Shown: piece by piece, positions 4,990-30,779 of the stretch
Layout: the number at the start of each line of letters is the position of its first letter
Numbering within the stretch: position 1 is the first letter of the stretch
Origin: Thainema sp.
GTDB lineage: Bacteria; Cyanobacteriota; Cyanobacteriia; Phormidesmidales; Phormidesmidaceae
Length of the DNA stretch: 35,982 nt
Assembly (NCBI GenBank): GCA_052168235.1
Contig: JBQLZK010000069.1
Location: forward strand, 1-35,982
Direction of reading: 5' to 3'
Position numbers and translations under genes: made by a program
Notes under the pieces: model-generated
The model's database searches: none
Told to the model about the DNA's origin: nothing
The model's input: the letters and a program-made list of their open reading frames with translations, nothing else

Positions 4990-5766
4990 TCAGGTTGAGG
5001 TATAAAACTCTACTACCATTGGTGCATGGTCAGATGAGATTAAATCTGGAATCACTACGGCACTACTCGGTTTAACCATTAACCCTCGATAAAAAATGTG
5101 ATCTAGCGGATGAGAAAACAGAAAGCGCTTCAGATATTGATGATGCTCATCTGTAAATTGCACCGACACAAGTCCCAGCCGAGTCGCTAACTCCGTCAGC
5201 AAATCCATGCGGCCAAAGTGCCAGGTGTTGAAGTCGCCCGAAAGAATAATTGGCCCTTGATGATGTGCGATCGCATTTTCTAACTGGTAAAGCTGGGACT
5301 CAAATTTAGCTGTGCTGACAAAATTGATGCCGTGCATATTCACTCCCATCAGGGTTTGAGCCATGCCTGCCAGCGGATATTCGGTGATCAACGCCACCTT
5401 TGGAATGTTAAAAAACGGTTCAAAATGCTCAGTTAACAGACTTTGCCAGGACGCTGCATTAGCCTCGGCTGCCGTCAGAACGCCAAAGTGAGTTTGCAGA
5501 AACGGAGTTTGAAAATTAGGCGCAAAGTGCCAGCCTGCTTGTGAATTTGGAATCGGCGATCGCTGAGCCACAACGCGAGCTTCCTGCAAAAACAGCAAAT
5601 TGGGTGTGTACTGCCGCGCAATCGACTGGAAATCTTGCCGCCATTGGGATTGGTGATTATTTTTGGCAACATTCCAGTTCAACACCCGGATCGAACGTCC
5701 ATCCAGGGCCAACTGCGTTCCCGGCTGATGCTGAATAATTGTTTCAGTCGCCTTAAACAGATTCAT
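4990..5766 (-). CDS. Endonuclease/exonuclease/phosphatase (EEP) family protein, YafD-like
   Basis: VLNWNV, LFLQE, NMHGINF, SGDFN, LDHIF and SSDHAP motifs. Confidence 0.9.
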   Translation of the reverse strand: MNLFKATETIIQHQPGTQLALDGRSIRVLNWNVAKNNHQSQWRQDFQSIARQYTPNLLFLQEARVVAQRSPIPNSQAGWHFAPNFQTPFLQTHFGVLTAAEANAASWQSLLTEHFEPFFNIPKVALITEYPLAGMAQTLMGVNMHGINFVSTAKFESQLYQLENAIAHHQGPIILSGDFNTWHFGRMDLLTELATRLGLVSVQFTDEHHQYLKRFLFSHPLDHIFYRGLMVKPSSAVVIPDLISSDHAPMVVEFYTST

Positions 5767-5911
5767 GGCTCTATTCTCACATCTCGCACCAAATCAGATC
5801 ATCACGTGATCACCCATCTAGCCCTTTACTTATCCACCTACTCTCCCGTACCCATCCACTCATCCACCATCAACTATCGACTCATCTATAGGCCAAATTG
5901 CAGAATTGATA

Positions 5912-6502
5912 TTACTCAATACCGGGAGGTACACGCTCTTCCGGCGATAGTTCCCGAATCACGCGACAGGGATTGCCCGCTGCAAAAACATTGGGCGGCA
6001 CATCTCGCGTCACCACGCTGCCTGCCCCAATCGTACTGCCATCGCCAATCCGAACGCCTGGACAGATAATCGCTCGGCCACCAATCCAAACGTCATCACC
6101 AATCGAGACGGGAGCCGCTAGCTCTAATCCTGTACGGCGAATCGACACGCTCAAGGGATGATAAGCCGCATAGATATGCACCCCAGGGGCCAACATCACG
6201 TTATTACCAAATTCCACGCGATTACAGTCCAGAATCACGCAGTCGTAGTTCATGTAGAGATTGTCCTTAGCAAAAATATGACGGCCGTAGTCGCAGCGAA
6301 AGTTTGGCTGAATCACTGGATTTGCGCCCACTTCACCAAACAGGCTGCGAATCAGTTCCTGGCGTAAAGCAAGCTCATCGGGTGCAGTTGCGTTGAAGCG
6401 ATACAGCAACCGCTGCACCTGGAGATACATCTCATACAGTTCTGGATCGCTGGCTAGATACAGCTCATTCGCCAGCATTTTTTCCCGTTCAGTTTTGTCC
6501 AT
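5912..6502 (-). CDS. maa: Sugar (maltose/galactoside) O-acetyltransferase
   Basis: TEREKML N-terminal domain, F.CDYG motif, hexapeptide repeats IGDDVWIGG...IGAGSVVTRDVP, and AGNP. Confidence 0.88.
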   Translation of the reverse strand: MDKTEREKMLANELYLASDPELYEMYLQVQRLLYRFNATAPDELALRQELIRSLFGEVGANPVIQPNFRCDYGRHIFAKDNLYMNYDCVILDCNRVEFGNNVMLAPGVHIYAAYHPLSVSIRRTGLELAAPVSIGDDVWIGGRAIICPGVRIGDGSTIGAGSVVTRDVPPNVFAAGNPCRVIRELSPEERVPPGIE

Positions 6503-6650
6503 CGGATCACGTTCCTTTGCATTGAGTAGCGCTGAATTGAGCGGGTGAGTGCTGTCTAATCCTACGGTATATCAAGGCTTAGAGAATGAGCTGTCTTACC
6601 TTATCTCTTATAAGCTAGCCACTCAGATTTCAGCAGGACATCGCCTCACC

Positions 6651-6678
6651 GTAGGGTGCATTCGCGCAGCAATGCACC
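6651..6678. repeat. GTAG-type REP-like hairpin
   Basis: GTAG followed by GGTGCATT-cgcgcagc-AATGCACC. Confidence 0.6.
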
Positions 6679-6703
6679 ACTGAATGAGTAGCCAAAACAA
6701 GTA

Positions 6704-6718
6704 TGATAATCATTCTCA
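6704..6718. promoter_or_regulatory. Zur box upstream of the Zn-binding lipoprotein
   Basis: TGATAATCATTCTCA, one mismatch to the cyanobacterial Zur consensus TGATAATnATTATCA; followed by a -10-like TGcTACACT. Confidence 0.75.
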
Positions 6719-6953
6719 TTTTGTGCTACACTTCACTGAGTAATCACCCCAAATATGCGCTGTGTAAAGACACTTTTGTTTTGCAAATCTTGATTTCAAC
6801 TCAGTACGTATCGGCTAAATCTGCCCTCTCACTTAGGTTCTGGGAGTTGAACCAGGATTAGGGGAAACGTTGCCCCACAGGGCGTGAATTACTACAAAAT
6901 GATGATGGGCGTTGCCATTCTGCACAATTAGACATGATTCAGGCGTGGACAAT

Positions 6954-8051
6954 ATGTGGCGATCTTTCTATCGAAATGCTGGATTAAAAGTGGGTATCGC
7001 GATTCTGCCGTTCACGCTGGGACTGGCAGGCTGTGGTGATTTATCTTCGAACACGCCATCTAATTCCACCAGTGACAATTCACAGCCACAGGTTGAAGCA
7101 GAGGTGCCAACCGTTGTTGCTACCAACGGCATCCTGTGCGACTTAACGCAGCAAATTGCGCAAGATACGGTGGAACTAACCTGCTTGCTTGAACCCGGCC
7201 AAGATCCTCATACCTTTGCGCCTTCTCCATCAGCAGTACGCGCCATTGAAGAGGCTGATTTGGTGCTGTACGGGGGCTACGATTTTCAGCCCAAAATTCA
7301 GGGTATGATCAAAGCGTCGCTGTATAAAGTTGCCGTCTTCGAAGCCGCTGTACCGAATCCACGTATGGCCGATCCCCACAGTCATGATCATGATCATAGT
7401 CATGAAGGTGAGCACGACCATGAACACGATCATGATCATGCCCATGACGATGCTGCCGAGGGAGATCAGGCAGAGCAGGCCAATGCAGGCGACCAAGTGC
7501 CCGATCCCCATGTGTGGCATGATGCAGTTTATGGTGCGGCATTAGTAGATGAAATTGCCGCGCGTTTGGCCGAAGCGACACCAGATGAAGCTGAACAGTA
7601 TCAAGAGCGGGCCGCTGTGATTCGCCAGGAGTTGACGGATATCGACCAGTGGATTCAAGCTCAAATCAACACGATTCCGGAGAGTAATCGGCTGCTGCTC
7701 ACGACTCATGATTCATTTGGCTACTATGCTGATGCCTATGGTTTGACAGTCGCGGGTGCCCTCAGTGGTTTGAGTACTGAGGAAAAACCGTCGGCGAATC
7801 GGCTGACGGAAATTGTGGATCAGGTGAAACAGGCTCAGGTACCTGCCATTTTTGCCGAAACCACGACTAGCCCCGATTTAATCAACACGGTGGCGCAAAA
7901 TGCAGGCGTAACCGTTGCCGAGACGCCGCTGTTTGTTGAAGGTCCCGGTGGAGCTGGCGCAGAAGCTGAAACCTATCAAGAAATGCTGATTGTCAATACC
8001 TGTACGATCGCAACTGCACTGGGTGGCAATTGCGATCGCAACTCCCTGTAA
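6954..8051 (+). CDS. znuA: Metal (Zn) ABC transporter substrate-binding lipoprotein, ZnuA/TroA family
   Basis: Lipobox LAGC; DPHTF, DPHVW and THDSFGY motifs; long His/Asp-rich loop; upstream Zur box. Start at ATG 6954 preferred over TTG 6912. Confidence 0.85.
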   Translation: MWRSFYRNAGLKVGIAILPFTLGLAGCGDLSSNTPSNSTSDNSQPQVEAEVPTVVATNGILCDLTQQIAQDTVELTCLLEPGQDPHTFAPSPSAVRAIEEADLVLYGGYDFQPKIQGMIKASLYKVAVFEAAVPNPRMADPHSHDHDHSHEGEHDHEHDHDHAHDDAAEGDQAEQANAGDQVPDPHVWHDAVYGAALVDEIAARLAEATPDEAEQYQERAAVIRQELTDIDQWIQAQINTIPESNRLLLTTHDSFGYYADAYGLTVAGALSGLSTEEKPSANRLTEIVDQVKQAQVPAIFAETTTSPDLINTVAQNAGVTVAETPLFVEGPGGAGAEAETYQEMLIVNTCTIATALGGNCDRNSL

Positions 8052-8054
8052 TCT

Positions 8055-8753
8055 CTAAGCTGTTCCCGGCTGGATGGCCGGAAATACAACTACATCACGG
8101 CACTGTTCTCCGGACGTAAACTCGATCAGTTCAGCTAGGGCAGTGCGGGGATTGGCGGTGCGGCCATTGGGCAAAACTGCTCCCCAAACTTCAACTTCGA
8201 TGATGATGGCCCGGCAGAGCTTAGCACTCCGGAGATCCGCAGAGGTTAAATCAGTCTGTTCTAGCATAGCTCCCAACAGTTCTGCACGGTAAAGCGTAGC
8301 GCGCTTCAAATTGGTATAGCGGAGCCGCACACCACCCATACGAGCTTGGCTGAAGTTAGCAGCTTGGCAATCGGCCCGATCCAAATTAGCTAGCGCCATA
8401 TCCGCTTGACAGAAGATGGCGTTCTGAAGCTGGCAGCGGCTTAAATCGGCTTTAATCAAATTAGCTCGGCTAAAATCAGCGGCATAGAGATTGGCACCGC
8501 TGAGATTCGCGCCATTCAAATCAGCACCGCTTAAGTTCGCATTCTGCAACTTAGCACCGCGAAAATTGGCATCGTTTAGGCGAGCACCACTTAAATCCGC
8601 ATTGCTTAGATTAGTGCCATTGAAATCAAATCCACTCCAATCGGTTCCACTCCAGTCCACACGGTTCAAATCTAGCCCGCTAAAGTCTCTATTTTGCAGG
8701 GCTTTAGCGAGCAAGTCTCCGCCGAGACGATTAATTGGGTTATTGAAGGTCAT
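8055..8753 (-). CDS. Pentapeptide repeat protein
   Basis: About 30 A(D/N)LxX repeats, ending in the typical GAVLPNG. Confidence 0.93.
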
Positions 8754-9900
8754 TACACCTGATCTCCACTAATGTTGCGATTGGGGGTTATCGAAAAGGG
8801 AGATTGAATCAGGCTGGAATTGATTGCTCGCCTGGATCGCGCGATATCAAATTCGTGTATGAGAACCCGATTTATTTTCATGAAAATAAATGATGGGTTT
8901 TCTACCGGATTTCATATGACTAATGATCCAGGCGCGTCTTGTCCTTGGAGAAACGATGGTTGATGGCTAGGAAAGTTAACTAGATTTAGATGCGCCCATA
9001 ACTCTAGGTACAAGACCGAAATCCATTGATTTCAATCTCGATATTGGTCAAACGAGCTAAAACAGACATATTGAATCGTTGTGTTGGTGATGTCTGGTGA
9101 AATGCGGCTGTTGACTGCTCAAATTGAGATGCTCGTGAATGACTCAGATGTGATTTGCTGAGAATTCCGTGTGAGCAGCGTCAGTTTGAACGTGAAAAAT
9201 TCGTTCTGCATAAGAATACGGAAACAAGAGATACAGCGAAGAAGCTTATTCTCACTGCTCGATAGGGATCAATAGGGCAATGTATCCTAATGCAGACCAA
9301 TTTTCGACAGCAGCACTGGTGAATTCAATGTTGAAATCATTGCATGAATCCTTACAATCTCAAACACCAATAGTTCAAACTTACGAATTGCCGATTTAGG
9401 GAAAATATGAACTGCGATCGCAGCTTATAGCTGGGGTCAAACACCCCAAATGCGATCGCACTTATCTCATTTAGTAGCAAAGATAACTAAATTAGCGCAA
9501 TTTCTGATTCGAAAATTAACTACTTGCCTGGAGGAATGTTGGTTAAAATCTAACCAAATAAAAACGGTAGATTTATTAAGGCAGCGAAAATACGTATTTC
9601 TTAAAATTTAGCTGAATCAAATTCCAATAATGGACATCAATCTTAACATTTGATGGATGTATGACTTTGGCTTTCTCTCAGGTAGCTGATTGACACAGTA
9701 AAATGTTGATTTTTGTAAACTAATTGTGTGATTTTCTCAAAAGGCATGTTTGGAGAAGCCATATAGTAATCGCTATCTATAAAAGGTTTAATTTCGCCTT
9801 GCTATATAGCATAGTGCATATTATGCTATTGAGTATTTTACCTGATTCAGTATCATGTTTAGAGAACTTTAGTTGCTACTTAAAATAATGGAGACCAAAA

Positions 9901-10263
9901 ATGAAAGCTATTTATATCGTTCTTATTATTTCTATTGCACTTGTTGCAATGATATTTATACTACGAGATCGAATTACGTTTTTCTCAGTAGGTGGATCAG
10001 GCCAACGCGGAAACAATAAACTGCAAGGCCGAATTGGAGTGAAGGCAAAAACTCCGTATGATCGGGATGAAGAGGCATTTTCTGTAGTCTTTAAAGGTAA
10101 TAGATATCAAGTAGGTGGAGGAGAGACTAACATTCGTCGAGATAAGGTGAAATTTGAAAATAATGAGGTGTATGGAAACCACAACTTTAATATTGAAGAG
10201 CCAAACCATCAACCCAAGCTAACTGATTCTGACAGAGGTACAGATTTACCTGAGAATCTATGA
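9901..10263 (+). CDS. Small single-TM protein with two Asn/Gly-rich beta-repeats (hypothetical)
   Basis: GGAG RBS; hydrophobic residues 3-21; stop overlaps the next start (ATGA). Confidence 0.75.
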   Translation: MKAIYIVLIISIALVAMIFILRDRITFFSVGGSGQRGNNKLQGRIGVKAKTPYDRDEEAFSVVFKGNRYQVGGGETNIRRDKVKFENNEVYGNHNFNIEEPNHQPKLTDSDRGTDLPENL

Positions 10264-11036
10264 GACGAACAGCAAAGGCATTTGCAAATCGAAAAAAAGA
10301 GGTTCAGCTTTTCTTGAATATGGTGCAAGGAAAGCATCCTGCCCGAATTTTTTTAATCGAAGCAACTTCAGGTATGGGAAAATCTAACTTGCTCAACAAG
10401 TTTCGAAGAGAATGCCCAAAGTCTATTCACCAAGTTAGTCTAAATTTAAGATGTGCGGAGATTGGTTTACCGTATTTGTTTAATACGATCCAAAACGATA
10501 TTGGACAGAAAAACTTTCCGCATTTTCAGCAGGAGCTACATAGGCTGTTATCTGGCTCAATAAATTTTTCTGGTAATCAGATGGAGGGAGAACAAACTAT
10601 TCAAATTGCGTTGAACATTGATGAGACAATCCGAAATTTTCGCTTAATGAAATTACAAGATGCTTTTTTCTTAGATTTAGCCATACTCTATCAACCAATA
10701 ACTATTTTGATTGACTCTTTCGAAGAAGGAATTGATGAAGTTAAGAATTGGATCGAAGGAGAATTTTTAAAGAAAGCATCTAAAATTCCGGGCTTGACAG
10801 TCGTTGTGGCAGGACAAATTGTACCGAATCCAAATAATATTGATTGGGGAGACAATTGTGAACATCATTGTCTCAATGCAATTCAAGTGGAAGAAGATTG
10901 GTATGAGTTTGTTGATCAAGCAGATTTGCCCTTTTCGAAAGACGTAACTAGAGCGATTGTTTGTTTGTGTAAGGGCAATCCTTTGCAGGTATGTGCTGCG
11001 TTTGATACTTTACTTGCAAACGGAGATTGGGAGTGA
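10260..11036 (+). CDS. Stand-alone STAND/AAA_16-like P-loop ATPase
   Basis: F.NR..E N-terminal motif, Walker A (ATSGMGKS), Walker B (ILIDSFE), VVVAGQ sensor strand, C-terminal GNPL (GxP) motif. Confidence 0.85.
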   Translation: MRRTAKAFANRKKEVQLFLNMVQGKHPARIFLIEATSGMGKSNLLNKFRRECPKSIHQVSLNLRCAEIGLPYLFNTIQNDIGQKNFPHFQQELHRLLSGSINFSGNQMEGEQTIQIALNIDETIRNFRLMKLQDAFFLDLAILYQPITILIDSFEEGIDEVKNWIEGEFLKKASKIPGLTVVVAGQIVPNPNNIDWGDNCEHHCLNAIQVEEDWYEFVDQADLPFSKDVTRAIVCLCKGNPLQVCAAFDTLLANGDWE

Positions 11037-14000
11037 TGACTACGGAACTGTTAGAAAGATTGAAGCAGGCAAAAACTGAAGAAGAGCGAGATTGGATTGT
11101 TTTATCAAGTTTGTTTGATTCTTTGCAACCTGAGCTAACCAGCGCAATATGGACGGCTGCTATACTACATTGGATCAATTGCGATATTTTGACAAATGTT
11201 TGGCCTGAGTGGAAAGATCGAGTTGATCAACTATATAATCAATTACAAAATTTTTCGTTTGTTGAAGAATTTCCGAGGCGTGGCTATTCGATTCATTCTT
11301 TGATGCGACAAAAGATTCTGAAATGGCTTTGGCTAACTCAGCGAGATGAATATTTAAGTATTTCAAATAGAGCAGCAAACTATTTTTTGCGATTTGATGA
11401 TTCAATTTCACAAATTGAACGTCTTTATCATTTAGCAGTTGTATCAGATAGTAGCGCTGTAAGAGAGTTAGATGGCTTAGCACAAACTTGGTACAAAAAA
11501 TTCCGCCTAGCTGAGCTTCACTCTTTACTGAAGAGGTTGAAAGAGCAAATTGATCAGGATCGTTCTAAACCTATTGTCCAAAAAGCTGTTTTGGGTTGGT
11601 GCGAAAAAATTTCTTCGCAGACGAGCAATGTACTTAGTAGTAATCAAACAAAAAGAAAGGAAGAACAATTAGTTTCCATATATTCTTCTAATAAAAAGTT
11701 GAAAAATAATGAGACATACAAGCCTGACCAATCCCGAGCCAGAATCACAGGCGGCTATCTGATTGAGCGGCTGATTGCCCTACGGACGTTTGATCAAAAT
11801 AAACCTCCCAGCCAAAACGAACTGGCTCAGTTGTTCTATCCCGACAAAAGCCCCAAAACTGGACGCGATTACATCAATAAACTGCGGCAGGGGGAGCGCA
11901 GCCTCACCACAGGGGAACTAGTTGATCTGCTGTATCGCTTGCAGGAACACTATCAGAGCCAGCAGCAGCAACAGCGGCGCAACAGCGATCGCACATCTAA
12001 ACCCTCACCTGCCAGTAGCTACGTTCTAACACCGGAGGAAATGCTGGTGCTGCTGCAAAAGCTGGTGCAGTTGACTCCAGTTGAGCGCCAGCAGCTCAGT
12101 CTGCCAGCCGGGATGGAAGAGGTCATGCTACAGCAGGCGCTGCTCAATCTCAGCCTCTACCAAGATCAGCGCGACTATGAAACGATTATCAGCCTCTATC
12201 GCTCCTCGATTGGGCTGGCCTTTGTGCAGGAAACCTCTTCGCCGTTTGGTGGACTGGATGACGTGCATCGCTATATTGAGACGCTGGTGGAGCAAGATCC
12301 GCCCTATTTGCCAGCGGGTCTGAGCCGCAGCAAGCTGGATGAATTGGCTAGCAAGGCCAAGCGGGAAATCGATCGCATTTTGCTCAAGTGCGGCGTGGGC
12401 CAGTTTCAGTTTCAGTTTCCCAATGTCTACCGTCAGGGGCAGTCGGCCTACATTCAGCAGTATTTGCCGCGCGGCTTTGTCCGCCGTCTCACCCAAGCGG
12501 TGATTGAGAATGAGCTGCTGACCCAGGATTTCCCGATTTTTATTAAGGCGATCACGATTCAGCAGATCGGGCCGTTTCCGCTGCGGGTGGCCAATCAGCC
12601 GGATGATCCGGGTTTGCTGCTGGGTAATCTTCTGCGCTTCGATGATACCGACGTGGAAATCGCCTCGCAGTATGCCAATCGGGTAACGGTGCATTTTTAC
12701 ATGCGGTTGCCTGCCGATTATCAGTCTGACTTTCCGGCCATTTTCGAGCAGCTCAAAAGCCAGGACGACACAGGATTACGCATTGATTTTTCCCTCAGCA
12801 GTACGGGTATCGGGGGCACATTGTCCCACGTGATTAAGGTGATTAATCTGCTGCTGCTGACCGATAACCAAAGTCTGCGATCGCAGTATTTTCCGATTGC
12901 CCATGATGTGCTGATCAATCAGGAAATCATCCGCAGCAACATGCCGTCGCCTGTCTGGTCACACAGTCTGGTCAAGCTCTGCAAGGTTAAAACGCTGGCT
13001 GAGGCGATGGATCAGAGTAAAACCGTGGGCAGACTCCAGCTTTATGAGCAGTTTGCCTTTGGTGATCCGGTGGGGCGGGGCGACTACTGCGGCTTTGATT
13101 TGATTCTCTGTTCGGCCAATGCGGCGCTACAGGCGCGACTGCGAGCCATCCGCTACACCGAAATTGCCCCCGCCAACTATGGGCAAGAACTCTGCCGCCG
13201 GATTGAGCGGCTGTATCTGCTGCAAGAGGCGATTTCCTACGTGGAATCCTATCCGTTTTCGTCCTTTGCGCTGTCCAGTCGCTTGCGGACGACCCTGTTG
13301 CGATCGCTGCAAAACCGGGCGCTGACGACCGCTGATCCCTACAGCTTGTTCGATGCCTGTTTGACGATTGCCCAAATTGATCTGAACGAAGGAGCCTATC
13401 GTCGCGCCTACAGCTATCTGGATCAAGTGGCTGTGCTGAAAGGCTTATCAGACAGCGGCATCAACTGGCTAAGGCGCTTTGGCAATGAAAATCAGGCCAC
13501 GCTGAGCGAGTTCGAGATTTTCTCAGGGGCGCTGATCACCCGCTTTGAACTTTGCCGCGCCCATTATTTCTACTTAGTGGATCGGCGGGCGGAACGGGGC
13601 GTGCGCGATTTTCTGCCTTCTTATATTCCGCTCGATCTGGATGAGCGCACCTTCCATCAGCGGCTGGTGGATGAAACCTGGCAGGCGCTCAACCGCGCCG
13701 AGGAACACCTGAACATTCGCTTAGCCAAGTATTTCATCATTAACGAAGTCTCCCAGGGACTGTTCCATCCCCACAATCAGCTCTTGGCCGAAATTTACTT
13801 CTTGAGAGCGAAACTGCTGATTTTTGCCGCGCCACAGGTACGGGTGGAAGAACCTAGCTCACCCCACTACATTCCTACCGACAGCAGCGTTGCGGGTACT
13901 TTCCGCGAGACAGAAACGGCGATCCACAGCGGTCGGCTCTACCTGATGGAAAAGGCGCGTCTCTACGCCGCCAGCAACGGTAACGAGGAACAGTATGCCT

Positions 14001-15112
14001 GCTACACCGCTTGTCAGGCTTGGCTGTATCTGATGGCTGCCTTCTCATCAGTTGCTGAGATTAACGTGCAGGTGGGGACGCAGCAAATCAAACTGAATCG
14101 CGATCGCGGTTTGGACTGGGCCAGACGCCTGCGCGATCACGCCTTGATTTCCTACGCTGAAACGGGCCAGCGCTGCTATTACCAAATTAAAGAAAACAGC
14201 GGATTGTCCGATGATTTGAATCCGCCCTTCGGTAACTATCGGATTAGCGCCATTCCACCGATTAGCGAAATGCTGGCGGAACACCTACCGGGACAAGACC
14301 AGGACAGCGGCGTTCTGTACTTAGATATGTCTCTGCTGTCGGTGCGGCGGGCTTGGTGTGGAGCCAGCGATGCCGACAATTCCAGCAGCCGAATCTATTT
14401 ATTTGGTGCCCATGCTTGCTACCTATTGCTGGCCAGAGGGCTGTTTCACCTCTGTAGCAACCAGTTGACGGCAGGTGATAATGAGTTTGAGCTAGTGGTA
14501 GAGCAAACCGACGATCCGCAGCTTTGGGATTGCAAGTTTCATATTGCCAGTCGGCTGCTCAATTTGGCCTGGGCCATTGCCGACGACGGGGCACAGGTTC
14601 ATCAGTCTGGTGAAGATGGCCAGTACGACATCCGGCGCAACTTCATGGCTAGCGATTGCTCCAACAGCGAGTTGTTAAATGCTGAGCCAAATTCAGCCGA
14701 TCCGGATGTTGCCTCGGTGCGTGACCTTTATCCCCACCGCGTCACCGAAATTGCCGACTTGGGCCGCATCTTTGCCGCTGCTTGCCTGACGCTGCGGTTC
14801 TACACGGCTCCAGTTGAGCAGCACCCGCAGCTTGACGAGCGGATTAGCTGGATTCTGGGTGATTTGCAGAGCTTGCGCCACTGTAACCGCCCGATTACCC
14901 GCCAAACTCTCCGACAGCAAGAGCGCTACAACGGCCACATGACGGCCTATCTGGAGCGCTGCCGGGATATTCTCATTGCCGAGTGTCGCCATGCAAAGGA
15001 GTTATACGTTAAGGAGGATGTGCGATCGCATCTTCCAGTTGATCACATCATCGAACGCCGCGATCAGCTTGTCCATCAGCTTTTCACAGCCCTACATTCA
15101 GATTCACCATAA
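11036..15112 (+). CDS. Large hypothetical protein: winged-helix-like N-terminal module, XRE-like HTH and helical/TPR-like C-terminal region
   Basis: ATG overlaps the ATPase stop (TGATG); L..FSFVE...YSIHSLMR resembles the post-NTPase winged helix of STANDs; SQNELAQ...YINKLRQGER is HTH-like; LTIAQIDLNEGAYRRAYSYL is TPR-like. Confidence 0.75.
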   Translation: MTTELLERLKQAKTEEERDWIVLSSLFDSLQPELTSAIWTAAILHWINCDILTNVWPEWKDRVDQLYNQLQNFSFVEEFPRRGYSIHSLMRQKILKWLWLTQRDEYLSISNRAANYFLRFDDSISQIERLYHLAVVSDSSAVRELDGLAQTWYKKFRLAELHSLLKRLKEQIDQDRSKPIVQKAVLGWCEKISSQTSNVLSSNQTKRKEEQLVSIYSSNKKLKNNETYKPDQSRARITGGYLIERLIALRTFDQNKPPSQNELAQLFYPDKSPKTGRDYINKLRQGERSLTTGELVDLLYRLQEHYQSQQQQQRRNSDRTSKPSPASSYVLTPEEMLVLLQKLVQLTPVERQQLSLPAGMEEVMLQQALLNLSLYQDQRDYETIISLYRSSIGLAFVQETSSPFGGLDDVHRYIETLVEQDPPYLPAGLSRSKLDELASKAKREIDRILLKCGVGQFQFQFPNVYRQGQSAYIQQYLPRGFVRRLTQAVIENELLTQDFPIFIKAITIQQIGPFPLRVANQPDDPGLLLGNLLRFDDTDVEIASQYANRVTVHFYMRLPADYQSDFPAIFEQLKSQDDTGLRIDFSLSSTGIGGTLSHVIKVINLLLLTDNQSLRSQYFPIAHDVLINQEIIRSNMPSPVWSHSLVKLCKVKTLAEAMDQSKTVGRLQLYEQFAFGDPVGRGDYCGFDLILCSANAALQARLRAIRYTEIAPANYGQELCRRIERLYLLQEAISYVESYPFSSFALSSRLRTTLLRSLQNRALTTADPYSLFDACLTIAQIDLNEGAYRRAYSYLDQVAVLKGLSDSGINWLRRFGNENQATLSEFEIFSGALITRFELCRAHYFYLVDRRAERGVRDFLPSYIPLDLDERTFHQRLVDETWQALNRAEEHLNIRLAKYFIINEVSQGLFHPHNQLLAEIYFLRAKLLIFAAPQVRVEEPSSPHYIPTDSSVAGTFRETETAIHSGRLYLMEKARLYAASNGNEEQYACYTACQAWLYLMAAFSSVAEINVQVGTQQIKLNRDRGLDWARRLRDHALISYAETGQRCYYQIKENSGLSDDLNPPFGNYRISAIPPISEMLAEHLPGQDQDSGVLYLDMSLLSVRRAWCGASDADNSSSRIYLFGAHACYLLLARGLFHLCSNQLTAGDNEFELVVEQTDDPQLWDCKFHIASRLLNLAWAIADDGAQVHQSGEDGQYDIRRNFMASDCSNSELLNAEPNSADPDVASVRDLYPHRVTEIADLGRIFAAACLTLRFYTAPVEQHPQLDERISWILGDLQSLRHCNRPITRQTLRQQERYNGHMTAYLERCRDILIAECRHAKELYVKEDVRSHLPVDHIIERRDQLVHQLFTALHSDSP

Positions 15113-22430: not shown

Positions 22431-24530
22431 CTACGCGCCTGCCACAGTTACAGGTTCCGGGAGATTCGCGATCGCAGGATCGCGATAGCTGCCTGTGCGA
22501 TAAGTCGTTCGCACGGCCTCGGCTAGCTGCTGGATAGGCGCAGTTTTGAGACAGACCGCATCGGCTCCGGCTGCGATCGCATCTGCCAACAGCGACTGCT
22601 GATCGGGATGGGCCAGAACGAGAATCCGGGAAGGCGTGACGTAGGATGTAGTCTGCACCTTGCGGGCCATGCGGATGAACTTGGCGATATCCATATCGGG
22701 CAGCGTGGCATCGACCACGGCTACGTCGATATCGATGGATTCCAGCAGCACCAGCCCGGTTTCGGCATTGGTGGCTTCGCTGGCCACTTCAATACCGGAT
22801 TGCGATCGCAGATTAACCCGCAGATCAATCCGCGTTTGCTGCTCATCCTCCACGATGGCTGTTTGAATTACCGCATGGAACGGCTGGAGCCGCGTGGGCT
22901 GCGTCTCGCACTCCGGCAGCTCCGGCAGGTCATTGGGCGCACCGCAGGCGGAAATCGTCCCTTCAATGGTGCCTTGAAGCGTGCCTTCAACTGCGCCTTG
23001 AACTGTACCTTCGAAGTTCACGTCAGCCCCCTGATGCTGCCGGAGCTGCGCCATTTGGTCGGCAGTGAGAATGCGGGACTCGTCAAAGCCAAACTCAATT
23101 TCTGTGTGCAGCCCTTTCTGCTTGACGCGGGTCAAGTTGTAGAACCGCTTGTTCAGCGTCGTCTTGACGAAGGCCCAGAGGCAGCCCAGCAGATACCGTC
23201 GCTTAAACGGATCGCGCTCAAACCAATACTCCAAGAACTTCCAGGAGTAGAAGCGGGCATAGTTGCGCAGCACCCCCTTCAGCACCTCTTCCCGCGTCAT
23301 ATTGTCCGGCTTGATGATTGGCGTAACGAAGTTGTAGTGCGAGTAGTCGCGAATCTCAACTTTGTCCTGCAAATCCTGGAACAGCTCAGAGAAGGGCCAA
23401 GGGGTGTACATGTTCCAGTTGGTCATGTCAGCTTTCCAGTCCCGCGCCATCAGATAGGTTTCTTCAATGGTTTCGGGAGTCTCGCTGGGCAGACCCATGA
23501 TGAACTGCACTTCGGCCAGAATGCCGTTTTCCCGCAGGAGCTGCACGGCTCGCTTGTTGTCAGCAATCGTCGTTTCCTTGCGGAACAGGTTCAGGTTGAG
23601 CTGAGCGGCTGCTTCGGTGCCAAGCGATACATGCACCAGCCCCGCCTTGCGATAGAGCGGCAGCTCCTTCTCATCGCGCAGCACGTCGGTGACTCGGGTA
23701 TTGATGCCCCAGTGAACGCCCAGATCGCGCTCAATCAGCTCATGACACAGGGCAATGAAGCGCGACTTATTAATCGTCGGCTCCTCGTCAGCCAGAATGA
23801 AAAAGCCGACGTTATAGTCCTTCACCAGCCGCTCAATCTCGTCCACAAAGTTCTTGGGCGAACGAGAGCGGTATTTGCGCCAGAACTTCCACTGGGAGCA
23901 GAAGCGGCAGCGGAACGGGCAGCCCCGTGCATAGTTGGGCACGGCCACCCGCGTATTTAGCGGCGTGTAGATGTACTTGTCCCAATCCAGCAAATCCCAG
24001 TCCGGCGTGAGGGTGTCTAGATTTTGGATCGGTGGATGAGCTGGCGTGGCCACCACCTGACCCTCATCCAAGAAGGCAATGCCCAGAATCTCACGACGAT
24101 CCTGCTCGTCTGTGCCATTTGCGATCGCACGCAGCAGGTTAACCGTAATCTCTTCGCCTTCCCCCCGAATGATGTAGTCAATCCACGGGGCTTCATGCAG
24201 CACCTCCCGATACATGTAGGTGGGATGAACACCTCCCATAATGGCTTTGGCCGAGGGGCACACCTCTTTGACTAGCCGCAGCGTACTCTGCGACTTGTAG
24301 ATCATCGGCGTGATCGCCGTTGCCAGCACTACATCCGGTTGATAGGCTCGAATCTCTGCCGCCAGCTCCGCATCATCAATGTAGTTGCTCATGGCATCAA
24401 TGAAGCGAACCTGATCAAAGCCTGCTGCCTTCAGTGCTCCACCGACATAGGGCACCCAACTGGGCGGCCAATTCCCAGCAATTTCAGCTCCGCCAGAGTG
24501 ATAATTGGGTTGAATCATCAGGATACGCAT
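22431..24530 (-). CDS. bchE: Anaerobic Mg-protoporphyrin IX monomethyl ester oxidative cyclase (B12-dependent radical SAM) with a C-terminal receiver domain
   Basis: BchE-type N-terminus PNYHSGGAEIAGNWPP; CPFRCRFC; ILADEEP; LGTEAAAQ; C-terminal AIVED...VVD..LP...CLK REC fold. Confidence 0.92.
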   Translation of the reverse strand: MRILMIQPNYHSGGAEIAGNWPPSWVPYVGGALKAAGFDQVRFIDAMSNYIDDAELAAEIRAYQPDVVLATAITPMIYKSQSTLRLVKEVCPSAKAIMGGVHPTYMYREVLHEAPWIDYIIRGEGEEITVNLLRAIANGTDEQDRREILGIAFLDEGQVVATPAHPPIQNLDTLTPDWDLLDWDKYIYTPLNTRVAVPNYARGCPFRCRFCSQWKFWRKYRSRSPKNFVDEIERLVKDYNVGFFILADEEPTINKSRFIALCHELIERDLGVHWGINTRVTDVLRDEKELPLYRKAGLVHVSLGTEAAAQLNLNLFRKETTIADNKRAVQLLRENGILAEVQFIMGLPSETPETIEETYLMARDWKADMTNWNMYTPWPFSELFQDLQDKVEIRDYSHYNFVTPIIKPDNMTREEVLKGVLRNYARFYSWKFLEYWFERDPFKRRYLLGCLWAFVKTTLNKRFYNLTRVKQKGLHTEIEFGFDESRILTADQMAQLRQHQGADVNFEGTVQGAVEGTLQGTIEGTISACGAPNDLPELPECETQPTRLQPFHAVIQTAIVEDEQQTRIDLRVNLRSQSGIEVASEATNAETGLVLLESIDIDVAVVDATLPDMDIAKFIRMARKVQTTSYVTPSRILVLAHPDQQSLLADAIAAGADAVCLKTAPIQQLAEAVRTTYRTGSYRDPAIANLPEPVTVAGA

Positions 24531-24566
24531 GATCGATCCTCCTGAGTTAGGTCAAAAAGTTGGCGT

Positions 24567-25952
24567 TTAAATTGCTCTAGAGAAATTGGCAATAATGCGA
24601 TCGCGCAGGTAAGCATCAAATACAGCGGCAATATTGCGAATGAGCAAGCGGCCAGCCGAGGTTACGTCGATAGCATCGGCATATACTCTAACTAAGCCAT
24701 CGGCTTCCAGTGCTTTCAGGTCAGCTAATTCCGGCTCAAAGTAGGCATCAAAATCGAGGTGATATTTCGCTTCAATCTCTGATTTGGAGAGACCAAAGTG
24801 GCACATCAGCTGCATGATCACCTCACGGCGAATGATGTCATCGCGGTGCAGATTAATTCCTTTTTCAATCGGTGGCTGTTCCTGATCGATGGCTTGATAG
24901 TAGTCCCGCAGCTGCTTGTGGTTTTGGATATAAGCATCGTGCAGCATACTGATGGAGGTTAAACCAAAGCCCAGCAGCTCCGCATTGGGCTGGGTGGTGT
25001 AGCCCTGGAAGTTCCGTTTTAGCAAGCCATTGCGCTGCGCCACTGCCAGCTCATCATCCGGCTTGGCGAAGTGATCCATACCGATATAGTAATAGCCACT
25101 GCGGGTCAATTCTGCGATCGCCATTTGCAGAATGTCTAGCTTTTCTTGACCAGAGGGCAGAGCAGCTTCGTCAATATTTTTCTGTACGGGCTTCAGCCAG
25201 GGCACATAGGCAAAGTTGAAGATCGCCAGCCGATCAGGATTTAAATCAACTGTATTTTGAATCGTTTCTTCAAAGGTTTGCAGAGATTGATGGGGCAGTC
25301 CGTAGATCAGATCAACGTTAACGCTGTCATACTTAGCCTGCCGAATCCAGTCCATGACGTTAAACAACAGTTCTTCCGGCTGCACCCGATTAACGGCGGC
25401 CTGCACCTTGGGATTGAAGTCCTGAATCCCAAAGCTAATCCGGTTAAAGCCTATCTCCCGCAGGGCTTGAATATAGGCTTGGTCAACGTAGCGGGGATTA
25501 ATTTCAATTGAAATTTCGGCTTCCGGTGCAAAGTGGAAATGACGATTAATCACATTCCACAGCAGCTTAACCTGTTCAATCGTCAGATAGTTAGGCGTGC
25601 CGCCGCCCCAGTGCATCTGCACCACGGGCTTTTCGGTGTTTAGTCTAGCGGCTGTTTGCTGAATGTCTTTAATTAAATATTCAAGATAATTTAAAGCGAT
25701 GTTCTTATTATTGGAAACAATAACGTTGCATCCACAGAAATAGCAGGCGCTTTGGCAAAACGGAATATGCACATACAGCGACAGCGGCGACGAACGCTGA
25801 TTAAGGGCTGTAATCGCCTGTTTGTGGTCAAAAGCGCTATAGTCCGGGCGCAATTCGGTGGCGGGTGGATAGCTGGTGTATCGCGGTAAGGGCTGATCGT
25901 ACTTTTTGAGTAACTCCGTGTCGAATTGCACAGTGGGCAACAGATATTTCAT
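24567..25952 (-). CDS. hemN: Oxygen-independent coproporphyrinogen III oxidase
   Basis: PRYTSYP, HIPFCQSACYFCGC, HWGGGTP, IGMDHFA and RNFQGY motifs. Confidence 0.96.
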   Translation of the reverse strand: MKYLLPTVQFDTELLKKYDQPLPRYTSYPPATELRPDYSAFDHKQAITALNQRSSPLSLYVHIPFCQSACYFCGCNVIVSNNKNIALNYLEYLIKDIQQTAARLNTEKPVVQMHWGGGTPNYLTIEQVKLLWNVINRHFHFAPEAEISIEINPRYVDQAYIQALREIGFNRISFGIQDFNPKVQAAVNRVQPEELLFNVMDWIRQAKYDSVNVDLIYGLPHQSLQTFEETIQNTVDLNPDRLAIFNFAYVPWLKPVQKNIDEAALPSGQEKLDILQMAIAELTRSGYYYIGMDHFAKPDDELAVAQRNGLLKRNFQGYTTQPNAELLGFGLTSISMLHDAYIQNHKQLRDYYQAIDQEQPPIEKGINLHRDDIIRREVIMQLMCHFGLSKSEIEAKYHLDFDAYFEPELADLKALEADGLVRVYADAIDVTSAGRLLIRNIAAVFDAYLRDRIIANFSRAI

Positions 25953-26002
25953 GTGGATGGTTTCTCCTTTGGGGTAATAGTTAGGCGCGTCAAGGTGTAG
26001 GG

Positions 26003-26152
26003 GGTGACTGACAATCTGTTCCCCTCATCCCCCACCCCCTTCTCCCACAAGGGAAGAAGGGGAGCCGCACAATCAGATTTAGTTTTCAAAGTCCCTCTCC
26101 CGCTCTGGGAGAGGGATTTAGGGTGAGGGCTAAAAACTTGTGCCAGTCAACC
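26003..26152. mobile_element. MITE-like element carrying the same core repeat as 22134-22224, in inverted orientation
   Basis: Ends GGTGACTGACAA / TTGTGCCAGTCAACC; core CCCTCATCCCCC...GGGAGAGGGATTTAGGGTGAGGG. Confidence 0.72.
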
Positions 26153-26186
26153 AGCTTGTAGTAGCGCGGCCAGCTTAATTTGCTGG

Positions 26187-26360
26187 GTAAGGTGGGCAGT
26201 GCCCACTCTACAAGATCGCTGTTTTAAGGAATGGGACAACCCCGCATTTTAGGCGTGTCGCGCTAGTAGGTTGGGTTGAGCAAAGCGAAACCCAACAGAT
26301 GCGAAGAGGTGTTGGGTTTCCAAGACGTATCAAGACCTATATGGTGAGCGATGCCCACCC
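26187..26360. repeat. Cluster of REP-like hairpins
   Basis: GGTGGGCAgTGCCCAC (26191), GTAGGTTGGGTTGAGCAAAGCGAAACCCAAC (26266-26296) with a GTTGGGTTTC partner, and GGTGAGCGATGCCCACC (26343). Confidence 0.65.
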
Positions 26361-26369
26361 GATGACAAC

Positions 26370-27128: not shown

Positions 27129-27483
27129 GCGAGTACCTCTAGTTGCTTGGCATCTCTTCATCGCAAACTTTATAACTATTGAGTGATTAAAGTCAATATT
27201 TTGCGATCGCAAATCTCCCTAAATCTGATCAAATCTCCCTAAATCCCATCCTGTAGGATAACTATCTGACCATTCCGAAATCAGTGCAATCTCTTTCATT
27301 ACAAGCTTACAAGCGATTTAGACCCCAAAAGAAGTTCAACAGAATACTTGACCCACAGTTTGATGAACTGAGAACACCGTCAAAAAACTTTATCTATCTT
27401 TACAGCTCAAGCACTAGTCGATAGTAGAGACAGGCTGTACTATAACCAAATAGTTATTAAGTTTACTTAGCGGATTTGAATCT

Positions 27484-30187: not shown

Positions 30188-30274
30188 GAATTCCTTGTTT
30201 CGCGTCTCTAGGGATTTAACCGGAACGGCATTTTATTTTTTGTCCTTAACTGAAGATTGATTCTAGAACAAACC

Positions 30275-30760
30275 ATGCAAGACACCATTACAGCTGTCAT
30301 TAATCCTGCCGATGAAAAAGGCGTTTACCTTGAAGCTGAAGAGTTAAACCGGCTGAAGCAATATTTCCAATCTGGTACTCAACGGGTAAAAGCAGCAACT
30401 CAAATTGGGTCAAGTGCTGCCAGCATCATTAGTGCAACGGTTGAAAAAAGCCTGCTATACGGGGATATCACCCTACCGGGTGGCAACATGTACCCTACTC
30501 GACGCTACGCGGCTTGTCTACGCGATTTAACCTACTTTTTGCGTTATGCGACCTACGCTATGCTGGCCGCCGATGCCTCCATTATCGAAGAGCGAGTGTT
30601 GAATGGCCTAAAAGATACCTACTCAGCCCTTGGGGTGCCTATTGAGCCTACGATTCAGGCAATCCAGGCTATGAAGGAAGTTGTCACCCAGCGGGTGGGA
30701 ACTGAAGCGGGTCAGGAGATGGATATTTATCTTGATCACATCATTAATGGTCTGAGCTAG
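30275..30760 (+). CDS. apcB3: Allophycocyanin beta subunit ApcB3 (LoLiP)
   Basis: [16 protein letters not shown] start; [25 protein letters not shown]. Confidence 0.88.
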
Positions 30761-30779
30761 GCACTAACCCTCGGCTTAA

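Follow-up and report, generated by a model that had tools for sequence, protein, structure and literature searches.

A low-GC island in a Thainema genome encoding a candidate motif-coupled pair of small membrane protein and mini-STAND NTPase

NLR-like proteins can be linked to their effectors by paired motifs or EADs that neighboring genes encode, a precedent documented in the available portions of Dyrka et al. 2020 and Kaur et al. 2020 (PMC7159879). A stretch of 35,982 nucleotides of contig JBQLZK010000069.1 from Thainema sp., hereafter the window, raises the question whether a small membrane protein and a neighboring ATPase might be connected in a comparable manner, here by a motif embedded in the nucleotide-binding domain. 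An earlier note on this DNA had described three translationally coupled genes, a motif common to the products of the first two, and what looked like a STAND protein split between the second and the third; the genes, overlaps, motif positions, Walker segments and GxP that it named all match the sequence, and the features of the locus are compiled in Table 1.

Gene layout and the low-GC island

Both overlaps between the three genes were found again, ATGA at 10260-10263 between ORF1 and ORF2 (4 nt) and TGATG at 11034-11038 between ORF2 and ORF3 (1 nt), with the ATG of ORF3 at 11036 and a GGAG located 6 nt 5' of ORF1. According to the composition profile of the window, the genes reside on an island with a GC content of 30-41%, compared to 51-58% in the flanks; its right edge is defined, at ≈ 11722, and its left edge is diffuse, between 8800 and 9500. 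HIP1-type GCGATCGC palindromes are present inside the island.

Table 1. Features of the locus in the window, with the basis of each assignment.
Feature	Position	Strand	Basis
Low-GC island	8800..11722	.	Composition profile; right edge = start of homology to P0155
ORF1, 120-aa small membrane protein	9901..10263	+	Translation; homologues P0005 and L001 small ORF
Single transmembrane helix predicted for ORF1 (aa 3-21)	9907..9963	+	Read from translation
ORF1 motif copy 1 (aa 62-78), one residue longer than the ATPase motif	10084..10134	+	Translation, alignment
ORF1 motif copy 2 (aa 83-98)	10147..10194	+	Family half-motif PSSM, 18-mer match
ORF2, 258-aa mini-STAND/AAA+ NTPase (nucleotide-binding domain + helical lid)	10260..11036	+	Pfam, family search, AF2, Foldseek
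Walker A (aa 35-42; G38/G40/K41/S42)	10362..10385	+	G40, K41 invariant in 113 sequences
Family-wide Asn/Gly-rich motif of ORF2 (aa 101-119)	10560..10616	+	Column counts, 113 sequences
Walker B strand (aa 147-156)	10698..10727	+	D152 invariant in 113 sequences; strand 147-152 in model
GxP motif of lid (G239-N-P241)	10974..10982	+	G239, P241 each in ≥ 90% of 113 sequences
ORF3 N-terminal 229 aa, island-derived, possible winged-helix + helical module	11036..11722	+	Low GC
Resident cyanobacterial gene, 1129 aa of a ≈ 1132-aa conserved hypothetical protein	11723..15112	+	Identity to P0155

The jump in GC content falls inside ORF3. Beyond residue 229, 1062 of 1129 residues (94%) are identical to the protein P0155 (1132 aa), without gaps and starting from P0155 residue 4. 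P0155 begins at the island junction; the resident gene has had its native start codon replaced, and the reading frame of the island gene continues into it. Along these lines, 38 of the 40 clusters of ORF3 homologues consist of proteins of 1077-1161 aa, and none of the 40 covers the first 229 residues. The chimeric nature of ORF3 is absent from the earlier note. The proposal that ORF3 constitutes the split-off sensor half of a STAND protein had to be abandoned: only residues 1-229 come from the island, and the other 1129 aa, 94% identical to P0155, are a resident gene. As the sequence past residue 229 belongs to a resident, unrelated gene, in which neither a Pfam repeat nor STAND C-terminal sensor repeats were found, no sensor arm is visible.

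The winged-helix domain that follows the lid in STAND proteins is not part of ORF2. The winged-helix-like start suggested for ORF3 survives as a lead from the Atlas search, which returned short proteins of 149-244 aa and a WHD_MalT cluster (score 0.93), but it received no Pfam or PDB sequence match. The single-sequence model of this part reached a pLDDT of 50, similarity to the third gene of a related locus on a Streptomyces plasmid was not significant (E=15), and the last ≈ 50 island-encoded residues are of low complexity, rich in Lys, Ser and Asn. The island-derived part may be either a truncated or a near-complete third gene, the latter because the nearest Atlas clusters, themselves a lead only, comprise proteins of 149-244 aa. 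The locus documents the movement of a module: a low-GC island inserted precisely at the start codon of a resident gene, and a chimeric ORF arose.

The Asn/Gly-rich motif in NTPases and small membrane proteins

In Pfam, ORF2 matched AAA_16 only, with an E-value of 8.6e-5 under the Pfam cut-off. It belongs to a widespread family of AAA+/STAND-like NTPases of ≈ 255 aa, with hundreds of sequence clusters and 648 representatives at E ≤ 1e-3; conservation counts refer to the 113 sequences of 240-275 aa out of 152 collected. The AF2 model of ORF2 (mean pLDDT 93.6; lid helices 211-253) retrieved PabY2304, Cdc6/Orc1, a STAND-TPR protein (6mfv), MalT and CED-4 in Foldseek, all with a probability of 1.00 and TM-scores of 0.45-0.58. 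The predicted fold is that of an AAA+/STAND protein, with a P-loop nucleotide-binding domain followed by a lid carrying GxP, and the stop codon is located 17 residues past GxP. Family alignment, model and Foldseek thus agree with the earlier description of an AAA+/STAND-type domain and lid that end just after GxP. As K41 and D152 are invariant, ORF2 can be rationalized as a predicted active NTPase; it has no repeats and is not an NB-ARC or NACHT protein with TPR or WD repeats. In the family member P0150, the NTPase follows a fused transposase fragment.

The motif noted earlier at nt 10560-10607 (aa 101-116) lies between Walker A and Walker B (D152), in the connector that leads from strand 2 to the Walker B strand. 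It is family-wide and not peculiar to this locus: among the 113 sequences, its columns show N in 79, G in 99, N in 65, I in 85 and L in 88, so that it is conserved in homologous ATPases. In the ORF2 model the first half (aa 101-110) forms a coil with a mean pLDDT of 70, the lowest internal value, and the second half (aa 111-118) a short helix packed as part of the fold; the motif is modeled as an exposed loop of lower confidence and not as a core strand. Its composition is enriched in N (4.0x), I (2.3x), V (1.75x), Q (1.5x) and G (1.16x) and depleted in P (0.07x), K (0.58x) and L (0.88x), the effects for G and L being weak. In terms of sequence composition it resembles the published amyloid signaling motifs, with the residue bias of the BASS motifs described in the available text of Dyrka et al. 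2020.

A further property of the family concerns additional domains. The motif is absent in 16 of 18 members with extra domains, compared to 29 of 119 without them (Fisher p=2e-7), and 13 of the 18 extra domains could be identified by Pfam (TIR_2, SEFIR, EAD1, EAD4, EAD7, Trans_reg_C). On the family tree, at least 15 separate origins of the fused state are seen; for motif against fusion, only 7 pairs give phylogenetically independent contrasts (median p=0.06 in a sign test). In three members EAD7 is inserted at the motif site. Because most fused members lack the motif and EAD7 can occupy its position, the sequences suggest that the motif acts as an interchangeable adaptor.

ORF1 starts with a hydrophobic N-terminal helix (residue 2 is Lys; Glu in its Pseudanabaena homologue), followed by the basic juxtamembrane segment RDRIT, a linker rich in Gly, Ser and Arg, two motif copies and an acidic, Pro-containing tail. 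Since the basic residues come after the transmembrane helix, the C-terminal part is predicted to face the cytoplasm, following the positive-inside rule applied by eye. Neither Pfam (no model even at E ≤ 1) nor NCBIfam nor PADLOC gave a match, and the Atlas search with ORF1 returned nothing; homologues are P0005 (120 aa, 60% identity) and the small ORF of locus L001, a Pseudanabaena MAG (28% identity). Among these three proteins, conservation peaks in the transmembrane helix and the RxRIT segment and not in the repeats.

That ORF1 carries two related copies and the ATPase one was correct with respect to coordinates and spacing, the Phe residues F64 and F85 being 21 residues apart; as an internal repeat, however, the pair is not significant, as 1332 of 2000 shuffles reach its score. 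The same spacing is found in P0005, where 448 of 2000 shuffles do so, again not significant. The resemblance between copy 2 and the ATPase was evaluated with a PSSM of the first half of the motif (10 columns), built from 109 other family members with the window locus and L001 left out. Across 34,246 six-frame windows, the two ATPases ranked at the top, followed by the small ORF of L001 (14.6 bits, third) and by ORF1 repeat 2 (12.4 bits, rank 4), with the next windows at 12.2 and 11.9; repeat 1 scored -0.6 when aligned without gaps. With this PSSM, to which neither locus contributed, the copies in P0005 gave 15.3 bits (the equivalent of ORF1 copy 1) and 10.8 bits. When the 18-mer of the ATPase was compared with the window, ORF1 copy 2 came out as its best non-self match (rank 1 of 25,045; score 25 vs 24 for the next). 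The match put forward earlier accordingly stands as the top non-self hit, but with thin margins on both scales, and in the window alone this sequence match is marginal. On the small proteins, the full 18-column PSSM yielded 5-6 bits only and a HMMER profile of the motif only 4-6 bits, a range given jointly with the full-length PSSM. Blind local alignment of small protein and whole ATPase was not significant in any of three loci (86, 159 and 359 of 500 shuffles); the region it selected in the window is not the motif.

Gene contexts were covered at three loci: the window, L001, and L002 on a Streptomyces plasmid. A small ORF with an N-terminal transmembrane helix precedes the NTPase in all three, overlapping it by ATGA in the window and separated from it by 6 nt in L001 and 43 nt in L002, so that the linkage of small ORF and ATPase also holds at both loci outside the window. 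A motif common to both proteins is found at two of the three. In L001, the small ORF directly upstream of the NTPase is homologous to ORF1 and contains a significant tandem repeat with an offset of 20 residues (0 of 2000 shuffles); both copies are the best non-self matches of the ATPase 18-mer (ranks 1 and 2 of 5,465 windows). The ORF2-like domain is there fused to a NACHT-like module and followed by a WD40 gene, with a recombination scar at residue 206 of the NTPase. In L002, on the other hand, the gene order is kept but no shared motif is detectable (590 of 3000 shuffles), and the expectation that homologous loci share the motif is borne out in one of them. Motifs scored higher with their own partner (25, 25, 28) than across loci (16, 17), yet other motifs among the 114 of the family score better than that of the own partner, which ranks 21 in the window and 4-7 in L001; within-locus co-variation of the motifs, as proposed, is therefore weak.

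Proposed mechanism and alternatives

Signaling by ORF1 and ORF2 through a shared motif, in a BASS- or EAD-like manner, is plausible and has moderate support. That these two genes, together with the first 229 aa of ORF3, represent a horizontally acquired, motif-coupled three-gene conflict or cell-death module is a reading to which we assign slightly less than an even chance. ORF2 would present its conserved ≈ 19-aa motif on the connector predicted to be exposed between Walker A and Walker B, and the presumably cytoplasmic part of ORF1 would offer copies of the first half of that motif at a distance of ≈ 21 residues. By analogy with STAND biology, a trigger sensed via a third component would lead to NTP-dependent oligomerization of ORF2. 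The clustered motif loops, acting as homotypic adaptor or template, might then capture and order the ORF1 repeats into an amyloid-like β-arch, and clustering of the transmembrane helices could finally damage the membrane. Amyloid or β-solenoid formation by either protein is something we infer. The fully elaborated version, in which a mini-STAND ring presents an Asn/Gly-rich β-arch cluster, templates a two-layer β-solenoid in a single-pass membrane protein and so kills the cell, with TIR or EAD adaptors able to substitute for the motif, we consider rather unlikely; amyloid-like signaling without a free terminal prion domain was not found described in the literature searched.

Several observations also fit an NTPase family in which the motif is an intrinsic structural or oligomerization element, placed at the site of the helical insert of AAA+ initiators and STAND proteins, with the small protein serving as anchor or regulator without amyloid-like templating; it could, for instance, mimic the loop and dock into the ring, or act via its conserved juxtamembrane segment. 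The motif occurs family-wide whatever the partner, its second half is a packed helix in the model, and the small proteins resemble many motifs of the family no less than that of their own partner; furthermore, they are most conserved in the transmembrane helix and RxRIT, and in L002 the two genes stay together with no shared motif detected. A structural element, however, should not vanish preferentially upon fusion to TIR or EAD domains (16/18 vs 29/119), nor be replaced by an inserted EAD7, and it is difficult to reconcile with a loop that is the least confident part of a monomer model of very high confidence elsewhere, and with the tandem occurrence of the motif in the small protein of L001. 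We regard this explanation as rather unlikely. Still less probable is a chance likeness of short Asn/Gly-rich segments in genes that are merely co-transcribed neighbors, for which the thin margins in the window, the blind alignments, the insignificant repeats of ORF1 and P0005 and the lack of a shared motif in L002 would speak; it has to contend with the replication in L001, a locus outside the earlier note (ranks 1 and 2; 0 of 2000 shuffles), with the scores of the P0005 copies obtained independently of these loci, and with the small transmembrane ORF upstream of the NTPase in every context covered.

Compatible with any of these readings, the present copy may be impaired, as the stop codon of the third gene is gone and its reading frame continues into the resident gene. 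That the module is in fact dead, a decaying remnant left once the island had inserted at the start codon of a resident gene and the end of the third gene had been lost, is a possibility that we hold as doubtful, though not remote. The GC jump inside ORF3, the replaced start codon of the P0155-like gene at the junction and the low-complexity end of the island-encoded part agree with decay, as do the scar in the L001 NTPase and the position of P0150 behind a transposase fragment. ORF1 and ORF2 are nevertheless intact with invariant catalytic residues, and the N-terminal part of ORF3 may be nearly full length, if the Atlas lead holds.

Through motif coupling of this kind, a bacterial cell-death switch might recruit its membrane effector in a new manner, and a motif inside a short, split NTPase combined with a bare single-helix membrane partner would escape screens. 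If the coupling is real, the repertoire of templated or homotypic signaling in bacterial immunity gains a large family, in which peptide motif and folded adaptors (EAD, TIR) can replace each other at one site, and the two proteins of 120 and 258 aa offer a compact model for the conversion of NTPase oligomerization into membrane damage.

Comparison with known systems

No described system matching the locus was found in the PADLOC 2.0 models or in the literature searched, in line with the earlier expectation: ORF1 and ORF3 match no PADLOC 2.0 family, and ORF2 matches mad8 only, in the P-loop and not significantly (E=0.014). Weak matches to this MADS component (PDLC04140) occur in 29 of 113 family members (best E 8.5e-8), but MADS is, in the available text of PMC13662399, an eight-gene methylation-associated operon, the other genes of which are absent here. 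The EACC1 two-gene system of multicellular bacteria, likewise a conflict system, has a small 5' gene product with one conserved transmembrane helix and short flanks; its partner, however, is a caspase-family protein and not an NTPase, and the available part of Kaur et al. 2020 (PMC7159879) describes no shared motif.

The same study (eLife) offers in EAD coupling a closer parallel, with a small non-enzymatic module both on a core NTPase and in a stand-alone neighbor, the two adjacent copies being expected to resemble each other most. Members of the ORF2 family carry EAD1, EAD4 and EAD7, and the motif is mostly absent there; EADs are folded domains of ≈ 60-120 aa, whereas the shared element here is a peptide of ≈ 10-19 aa, and no description of the ORF2 family or its motif was found in the portion of the paper available. 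With HET-S/NWD2 of Podospora (HRAM), as treated in the accessible text of Dyrka et al. 2020, the locus would have in common a membrane-targeting effector with two motif copies at a period of ≈ 21 residues, matched by a single copy on the NLR side. That system is fungal, its effector contains a HeLo domain, its NLR carries the motif at the N-terminus, and the HET-s repeats are separated by a flexible loop, in contrast to the contiguous copies here, where shuffling supports the repeat in the L001 homologue alone.

The abortive-infection pair Bab/Agp (BASS11), as far as the available text of Ibarlosa et al. 2024 (10.1101/2024.11.07.622273) goes, consists of a 109-aa effector with N-terminal hydrophobic helix and C-terminal motif and of a partner with the same motif, the product of the neighboring gene; foci depend on a conserved Asn and are abolished by N12P and N100P. 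Bab differs in its structured helical domain, and the motif here is of other sequence and internal. BASS1-10, in the available text of Dyrka et al. 2020 (10.1101/2020.01.06.895854), carry the NLR motif at a free N-terminus and pair Bell-domain effectors with NB-ARC or NACHT proteins bearing TPR or WD repeats, whereas here the motif lies inside the nucleotide-binding domain of a ≈ 255-aa-type protein with lid; the copies in the effector, as in BASS, sit toward the C-terminus (aa 62-98 of 120). Family and Atlas searches recognized no Bell helical bundle in ORF1; a Bell domain is defined by a hydrophobic N-terminal helix, which ORF1 has, an acidic residue at position 2-3 and a five-helix bundle. 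On the other hand, BASS share with it adjacent, collinear and often overlapping genes, an effector of ≈ 120 aa that begins with a hydrophobic helix, a short motif rich in N, G, Q, V and I and poor in Pro that is common to effector and STAND-type NTPase, and an occurrence in filamentous cyanobacteria and actinobacteria; some BASS effectors have two or three pseudo-repeats for one copy in the NLR, as may be the case here.

Layout of the gene trio and the low-GC island

The phycobilisome, PSII, heme oxygenase and pentapeptide-repeat genes of the window identify it as cyanobacterial DNA, in which a small membrane protein (ORF1), a mini-STAND/AAA+ ATPase (ORF2, the NTPase) and a chimeric third gene product (ORF3) are encoded head to tail. 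Direct reading of the ORFs bore out the descriptive part of the earlier note, which had reported translational coupling, a motif shared between ORF1 and ORF2, and an ATPase ending shortly after its GxP motif. Neighbouring reading frames overlap as ATGA (10260-10263) and TGATG (11034-11038), and a GGAG lies 6 nt upstream of ORF1; promoter-like sites were not more frequent than in shuffles (11 vs 9.4±3.3). ORF1 begins with a hydrophobic helix at aa 3-21, which is followed by the basic segment RDRIT and a Gly/Ser-rich linker; two copies of the motif, located as described and with their Phe residues 21 residues apart, precede the acidic/Pro tail. In ORF2, Walker A (G38, G40, K41, S42) and Walker B (D152) flank the Asn/Gly-rich motif at aa 101-119, and the stop codon follows 17 residues beyond GxP (G239, P241). 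Neither ORF1 nor ORF3 matched Pfam, NCBIfam or PADLOC, and ORF1 gave no usable match in the Atlas.

Features of the window and their coordinates
Feature	Position (nt)	Strand	Remarks
ORF1	9901-10263	+	120 aa
ORF2	10260-11036	+	258 aa
ORF3	11036 (ATG) to 15112	+	1358 aa
GCGATCGC HIP1-type palindromes	9412-9419, 9452-9459, 11985-11992		two inside the low-GC stretch
AT-rich stretch	8754-9900		1.15 kb separating ORF1 from the pentapeptide-repeat gene; free of ORFs ≥60 aa
18-nt direct repeat, 83% identical	10150-10167, 11696-11713		coding for ORF1 repeat 2; last bases of the island, before the junction
Radical SAM and heme oxygenase cluster	22431-28554		B12-binding radical SAM protein with receiver domain, HemN-type radical SAM protein, heme oxygenase, rubrerythrin-family protein
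Phycobilisome and PSII genes	29714-32327		two phycobilisome-family genes, then a 495-aa PSII-family protein

Between about 8800 and 11750 the GC content is 30-41%, and it rises to 51-58% from 11800 onwards, such that the jump falls inside ORF3. The 40 homologue clusters of ORF3, of which 38 are 1077-1161 aa long and the named ones belong to Leptolyngbya/Nodosilinea-type cyanobacteria, cover only its C-terminal 41-83%, and the first 229 aa are covered by none. The best homologue, P0155 (1132 aa), aligns with ORF3 aa 230-1358 without a gap (1062/1129 identities), and since this match starts at residue 4 of P0155, the right-hand limit of the island falls at about nt 11722, on the start codon of the resident gene. 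Judging from this alignment, the resident gene's own start codon is replaced, and the third ORF of the island (229 aa) reads in frame into the resident gene, whose family (about 1132 aa) is conserved, hypothetical and devoid of a Pfam domain. The island part of ORF3 had no Pfam match and only chance-level PDB sequence matches, its final ~50 residues are of low complexity, and a single-sequence AF2 model of aa 1-229, computed without an alignment, was unusable (pLDDT 50). The Atlas returned short hypothetical proteins (149, 244 and 177 aa, scoring 0.97-0.93) and, at 0.93, a WHD_MalT cluster, a lead according to which this part may be a nearly complete WHD-containing protein.

At the island edges, no notable flanking direct or inverted repeats and no tRNA-like or Rfam element were detected, nor was a transposase or integrase remnant in 8750-9900; the AT-rich stretch matched nothing in Rfam, and its short ORFs had no Pfam match. 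The 18-nt direct repeat may be due to chance in AT-rich DNA. The position of two of the GCGATCGC palindromes inside the low-GC stretch points tentatively to a cyanobacterial origin of the island or, at least, of its left part. The window copy of the trio resides on a foreign island and may be damaged. Farther downstream, the radical SAM and heme oxygenase cluster looks like the low-oxygen tetrapyrrole clusters known from cyanobacteria, and in the 495-aa PSII-family protein the Pfam model match is confined to the first 276 residues.

A mini-STAND family with an embedded motif

While a word-indexed search with ORF2 found two clusters only (53% and 42% identity), an exhaustive search recovered 648 representatives with an E-value of up to 1e-3, 278 of them with at most 1e-10. 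The short form, a nucleotide-binding domain plus lid, is the norm of the family and not a local truncation, since 113 of the 152 family sequences analysed are 240-275 aa long. In the alignment of 113 members, no variation is seen at G40, K41 and D152, and almost none at G239 and P241. Pfam recognized AAA_16 alone, under its cut-off, and a PDB sequence search with the ORF2 profile gave P-loop-level or chance matches only. The AF2 model computed with the family alignment (pLDDT 93.6, pTM 0.90) was matched by Foldseek, with probability 1.00 and TM-scores of 0.44-0.58, to PabY2304, Cdc6/Orc1, a STAND-TPR protein, MalT, CED-4 and Avs3, which places the predicted fold among the AAA+/STAND proteins. 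One family member, P0150, combines a Mutator-family transposase fragment and the C-terminal half of the NTPase in one predicted protein, probably as the result of an insertion sequence disrupting the gene.

The motif turns out, from the alignment, to be a family-wide feature and not peculiar to the window locus. Its consensus is roughly [VI]-N-[IV]-S-x-N-x-h-h-G-x-(x)-N-x-I-x-V-A-L, with column counts of 79 (N), 99 (G), 65 (N), 85 (I) and 88 (L) out of 113. It occupies the connector joining strand 2 and the Walker B strand, presumably the place of the helical insert that lines the ring hub in the initiator and STAND clades. A structural role as a core strand of the NTPase fold, the alternative that the earlier note had named against its own reading, finds no counterpart in the model, in which the motif is exposed and all five predicted sheet strands lie outside it; among internal segments, confidence is lowest over the coil of aa 101-110 (block mean 70), and a short helix spans aa 111-118 (block mean 85). 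Relative to the rest of the same proteins, Asn (4.0x), Ile (2.3x), Val (1.75x) and Gln (1.5x) are enriched in the motif and Pro is depleted (0.07x); the same compositional bias is described for bacterial amyloid signalling motifs in the accessible text of Dyrka 2020 (bioRxiv 10.1101/2020.01.06.895854).

Extra parts are present in 18 of the family sequences analysed and were identified by Pfam in 13 of them: TIR_2 (3 members), SEFIR/TIR (1), the effector-associated domains (EADs) EAD7 (2), EAD1 (1) and EAD4 (1), and Trans_reg_C (1) at the N-terminus, EAD7 at the C-terminus (1), and EAD7 inserted precisely at the motif site in three members (P0120, P0124 and P0143). The motif is absent (score <8) from 16 of the 18, whereas its median score in the 113 stand-alone members is 29 bits. 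With leave-one-out scoring of 137 near-complete rows, two fused members were motif-positive and 16 negative, against 90 and 29 of the unfused (Fisher p=2e-7). A tree inferred with the motif columns removed shows at least 15 changes of the fused state; among seven independent pairs on supported branches, the motif changed opposite to fusion in about five and the same way in about none, a consistent but thin trend (sign test, median p=0.06). EADs are homotypic adaptors carried by a core component and also by the product of an adjacent gene, as set out in the portion of Kaur 2020 (PMC7159879) available. The exclusion pattern and this adaptor role together suggest that the embedded motif serves the function for which other members of the family have EAD or TIR fusions.

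Motif resemblance between the NTPase and the small membrane protein

The only close homologue of ORF1 in the protein collection is P0005 (120 aa, 60% identity). A single scan of genome contigs, with patterns taken from three sequences only, yielded one locus, L001, located in a Pseudanabaena MAG. There, a 152-aa ORF with a TM helix at its N-terminus stops 6 nt short of an ORF2 homologue; this ORF is 28% identical to ORF1, with the TM helix and RxRIT conserved. A PSSM of the first half of the motif (10 columns, 109 family members, window locus and L001 left out) was scanned on the 34,246 ten-residue windows that the window and L001 yield from their ORFs in all six frames. The two ATPases came out on top (22.8 and 18.0 bits), followed by copy 1 of the L001 small ORF (14.6) and copy 2 of ORF1 (12.4 vs 12.2 and 11.9 in the background directly below); L001 copy 2 was ninth (9.8). 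P0005 scored 15.3 and 10.8 bits, and copy 1 of ORF1, ungapped, -0.6. With an 18-mer of ORF2, the best non-self match in the window was ORF1 (rank 1 of 25,045, by a margin of 25 vs 24), and the 18-mer of the L001 ATPase found its upstream small ORF at ranks 1 and 2 of 5,465 (27 and 18 vs 16).

Own-partner motif scores were equalled by 19, 12 and 5 of 2000 shuffles in three pairings, the first of which (P0005 with P0002, another protein from the searches) is not a known locus pair, and cross-locus scores by 97/2000 and 189/2000. Against sharing of the motif, the full 18-column PSSM and a HMMER motif profile gave the small proteins only 4-6 bits; on six-frame ORFs the profile ranked them marginally on top (4.1 and 3.8 vs a background of 3.5), with the L001 small ORF about 27th. 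Blind local alignment of the small protein to the whole ATPase was not significant in any of three loci and settled, in the window, on a region other than the motif. Of the three internal repeats tested, that of the L001 small ORF alone was significant (offset 20, 0/2000 shuffles), those of ORF1 and P0005 being reached by 1332/2000 and 448/2000. Since the own partner ranked 21st among 114 family motifs for ORF1 and 4th-7th for L001, the small proteins resemble the family motif generally, and co-variation within loci is weak.

Plasmids searched by tblastn with the family proteins P0001, P0127, P0032 and P0016 gave no match, nor did phages searched with P0001, and a search for further gene contexts with P0196 found only itself. 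With P0010, one Streptomyces plasmid locus (L002) was obtained, encoding a 105-aa N-terminal TM protein, a 251-aa NTPase (E=2e-7 to ORF2) and a 696-aa protein whose gene overlaps that of the NTPase by 13 nt. Its NTPase motif is degenerate and was not matched by the small protein (590/3000 shuffles), and the third gene product showed no significant similarity to the N-terminal part of ORF3. Several hydrophobic helices are encoded at the end of this third gene (5735-7825), which is followed 0.8 kb downstream by an integrase gene (8605-10633). L001 (901-6622) is also rearranged: its NTPase, 83% identical to the stand-alone P0003 as far as residue 206, loses the lid thereafter and is fused to a NACHT-like NTPase module. 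The L001 ORF that follows encodes WD40 repeats succeeded by a long multi-pass membrane region; in L001 as in L002, the third component is membrane-associated. A small TM gene thus precedes the NTPase in three of three contexts, and the motif is shared in two of them. The reading of the trio as a split NLR with amyloid signalling is plausible, though it draws on two loci, thin statistics in the window itself and an exclusion pattern that is indirect, if striking.

Relation to known systems

PADLOC assigned no system to the trio; ORF2 matched its mad8 model at 0.014, and 29 of the 113 aligned family members did so weakly (best E 8.5e-8), which may reflect a distant relationship between ATPases. 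Membership in MADS was rejected, the matches being weak and MADS being, in the accessible text of PMC13662399, an unrelated eight-gene operon. Full-text literature searches, together with passages of individual papers, yielded in the text they covered no description of this gene trio or of a motif embedded in the nucleotide-binding domain. The closest described systems are the Bell/NLR pairs of bacterial amyloid signalling (BASS) and Bab/Agp (BASS11), as portrayed in the available text of Dyrka 2020 (bioRxiv 10.1101/2020.01.06.895854) and Ibarlosa 2024 (bioRxiv 10.1101/2024.11.07.622273). With both the window locus shares, to the extent of that text, the adjacent genes, a small effector with an N-terminal hydrophobic helix and the motif composition, and with some BASS pairs also repeats in the effector, putative ones in ORF1. 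It departs from the BASS pairs, as they appear there, in that ORF1 has no recognizable Bell domain, that the motif on the NTPase side is internal, and that the NTPase is a split mini-STAND.
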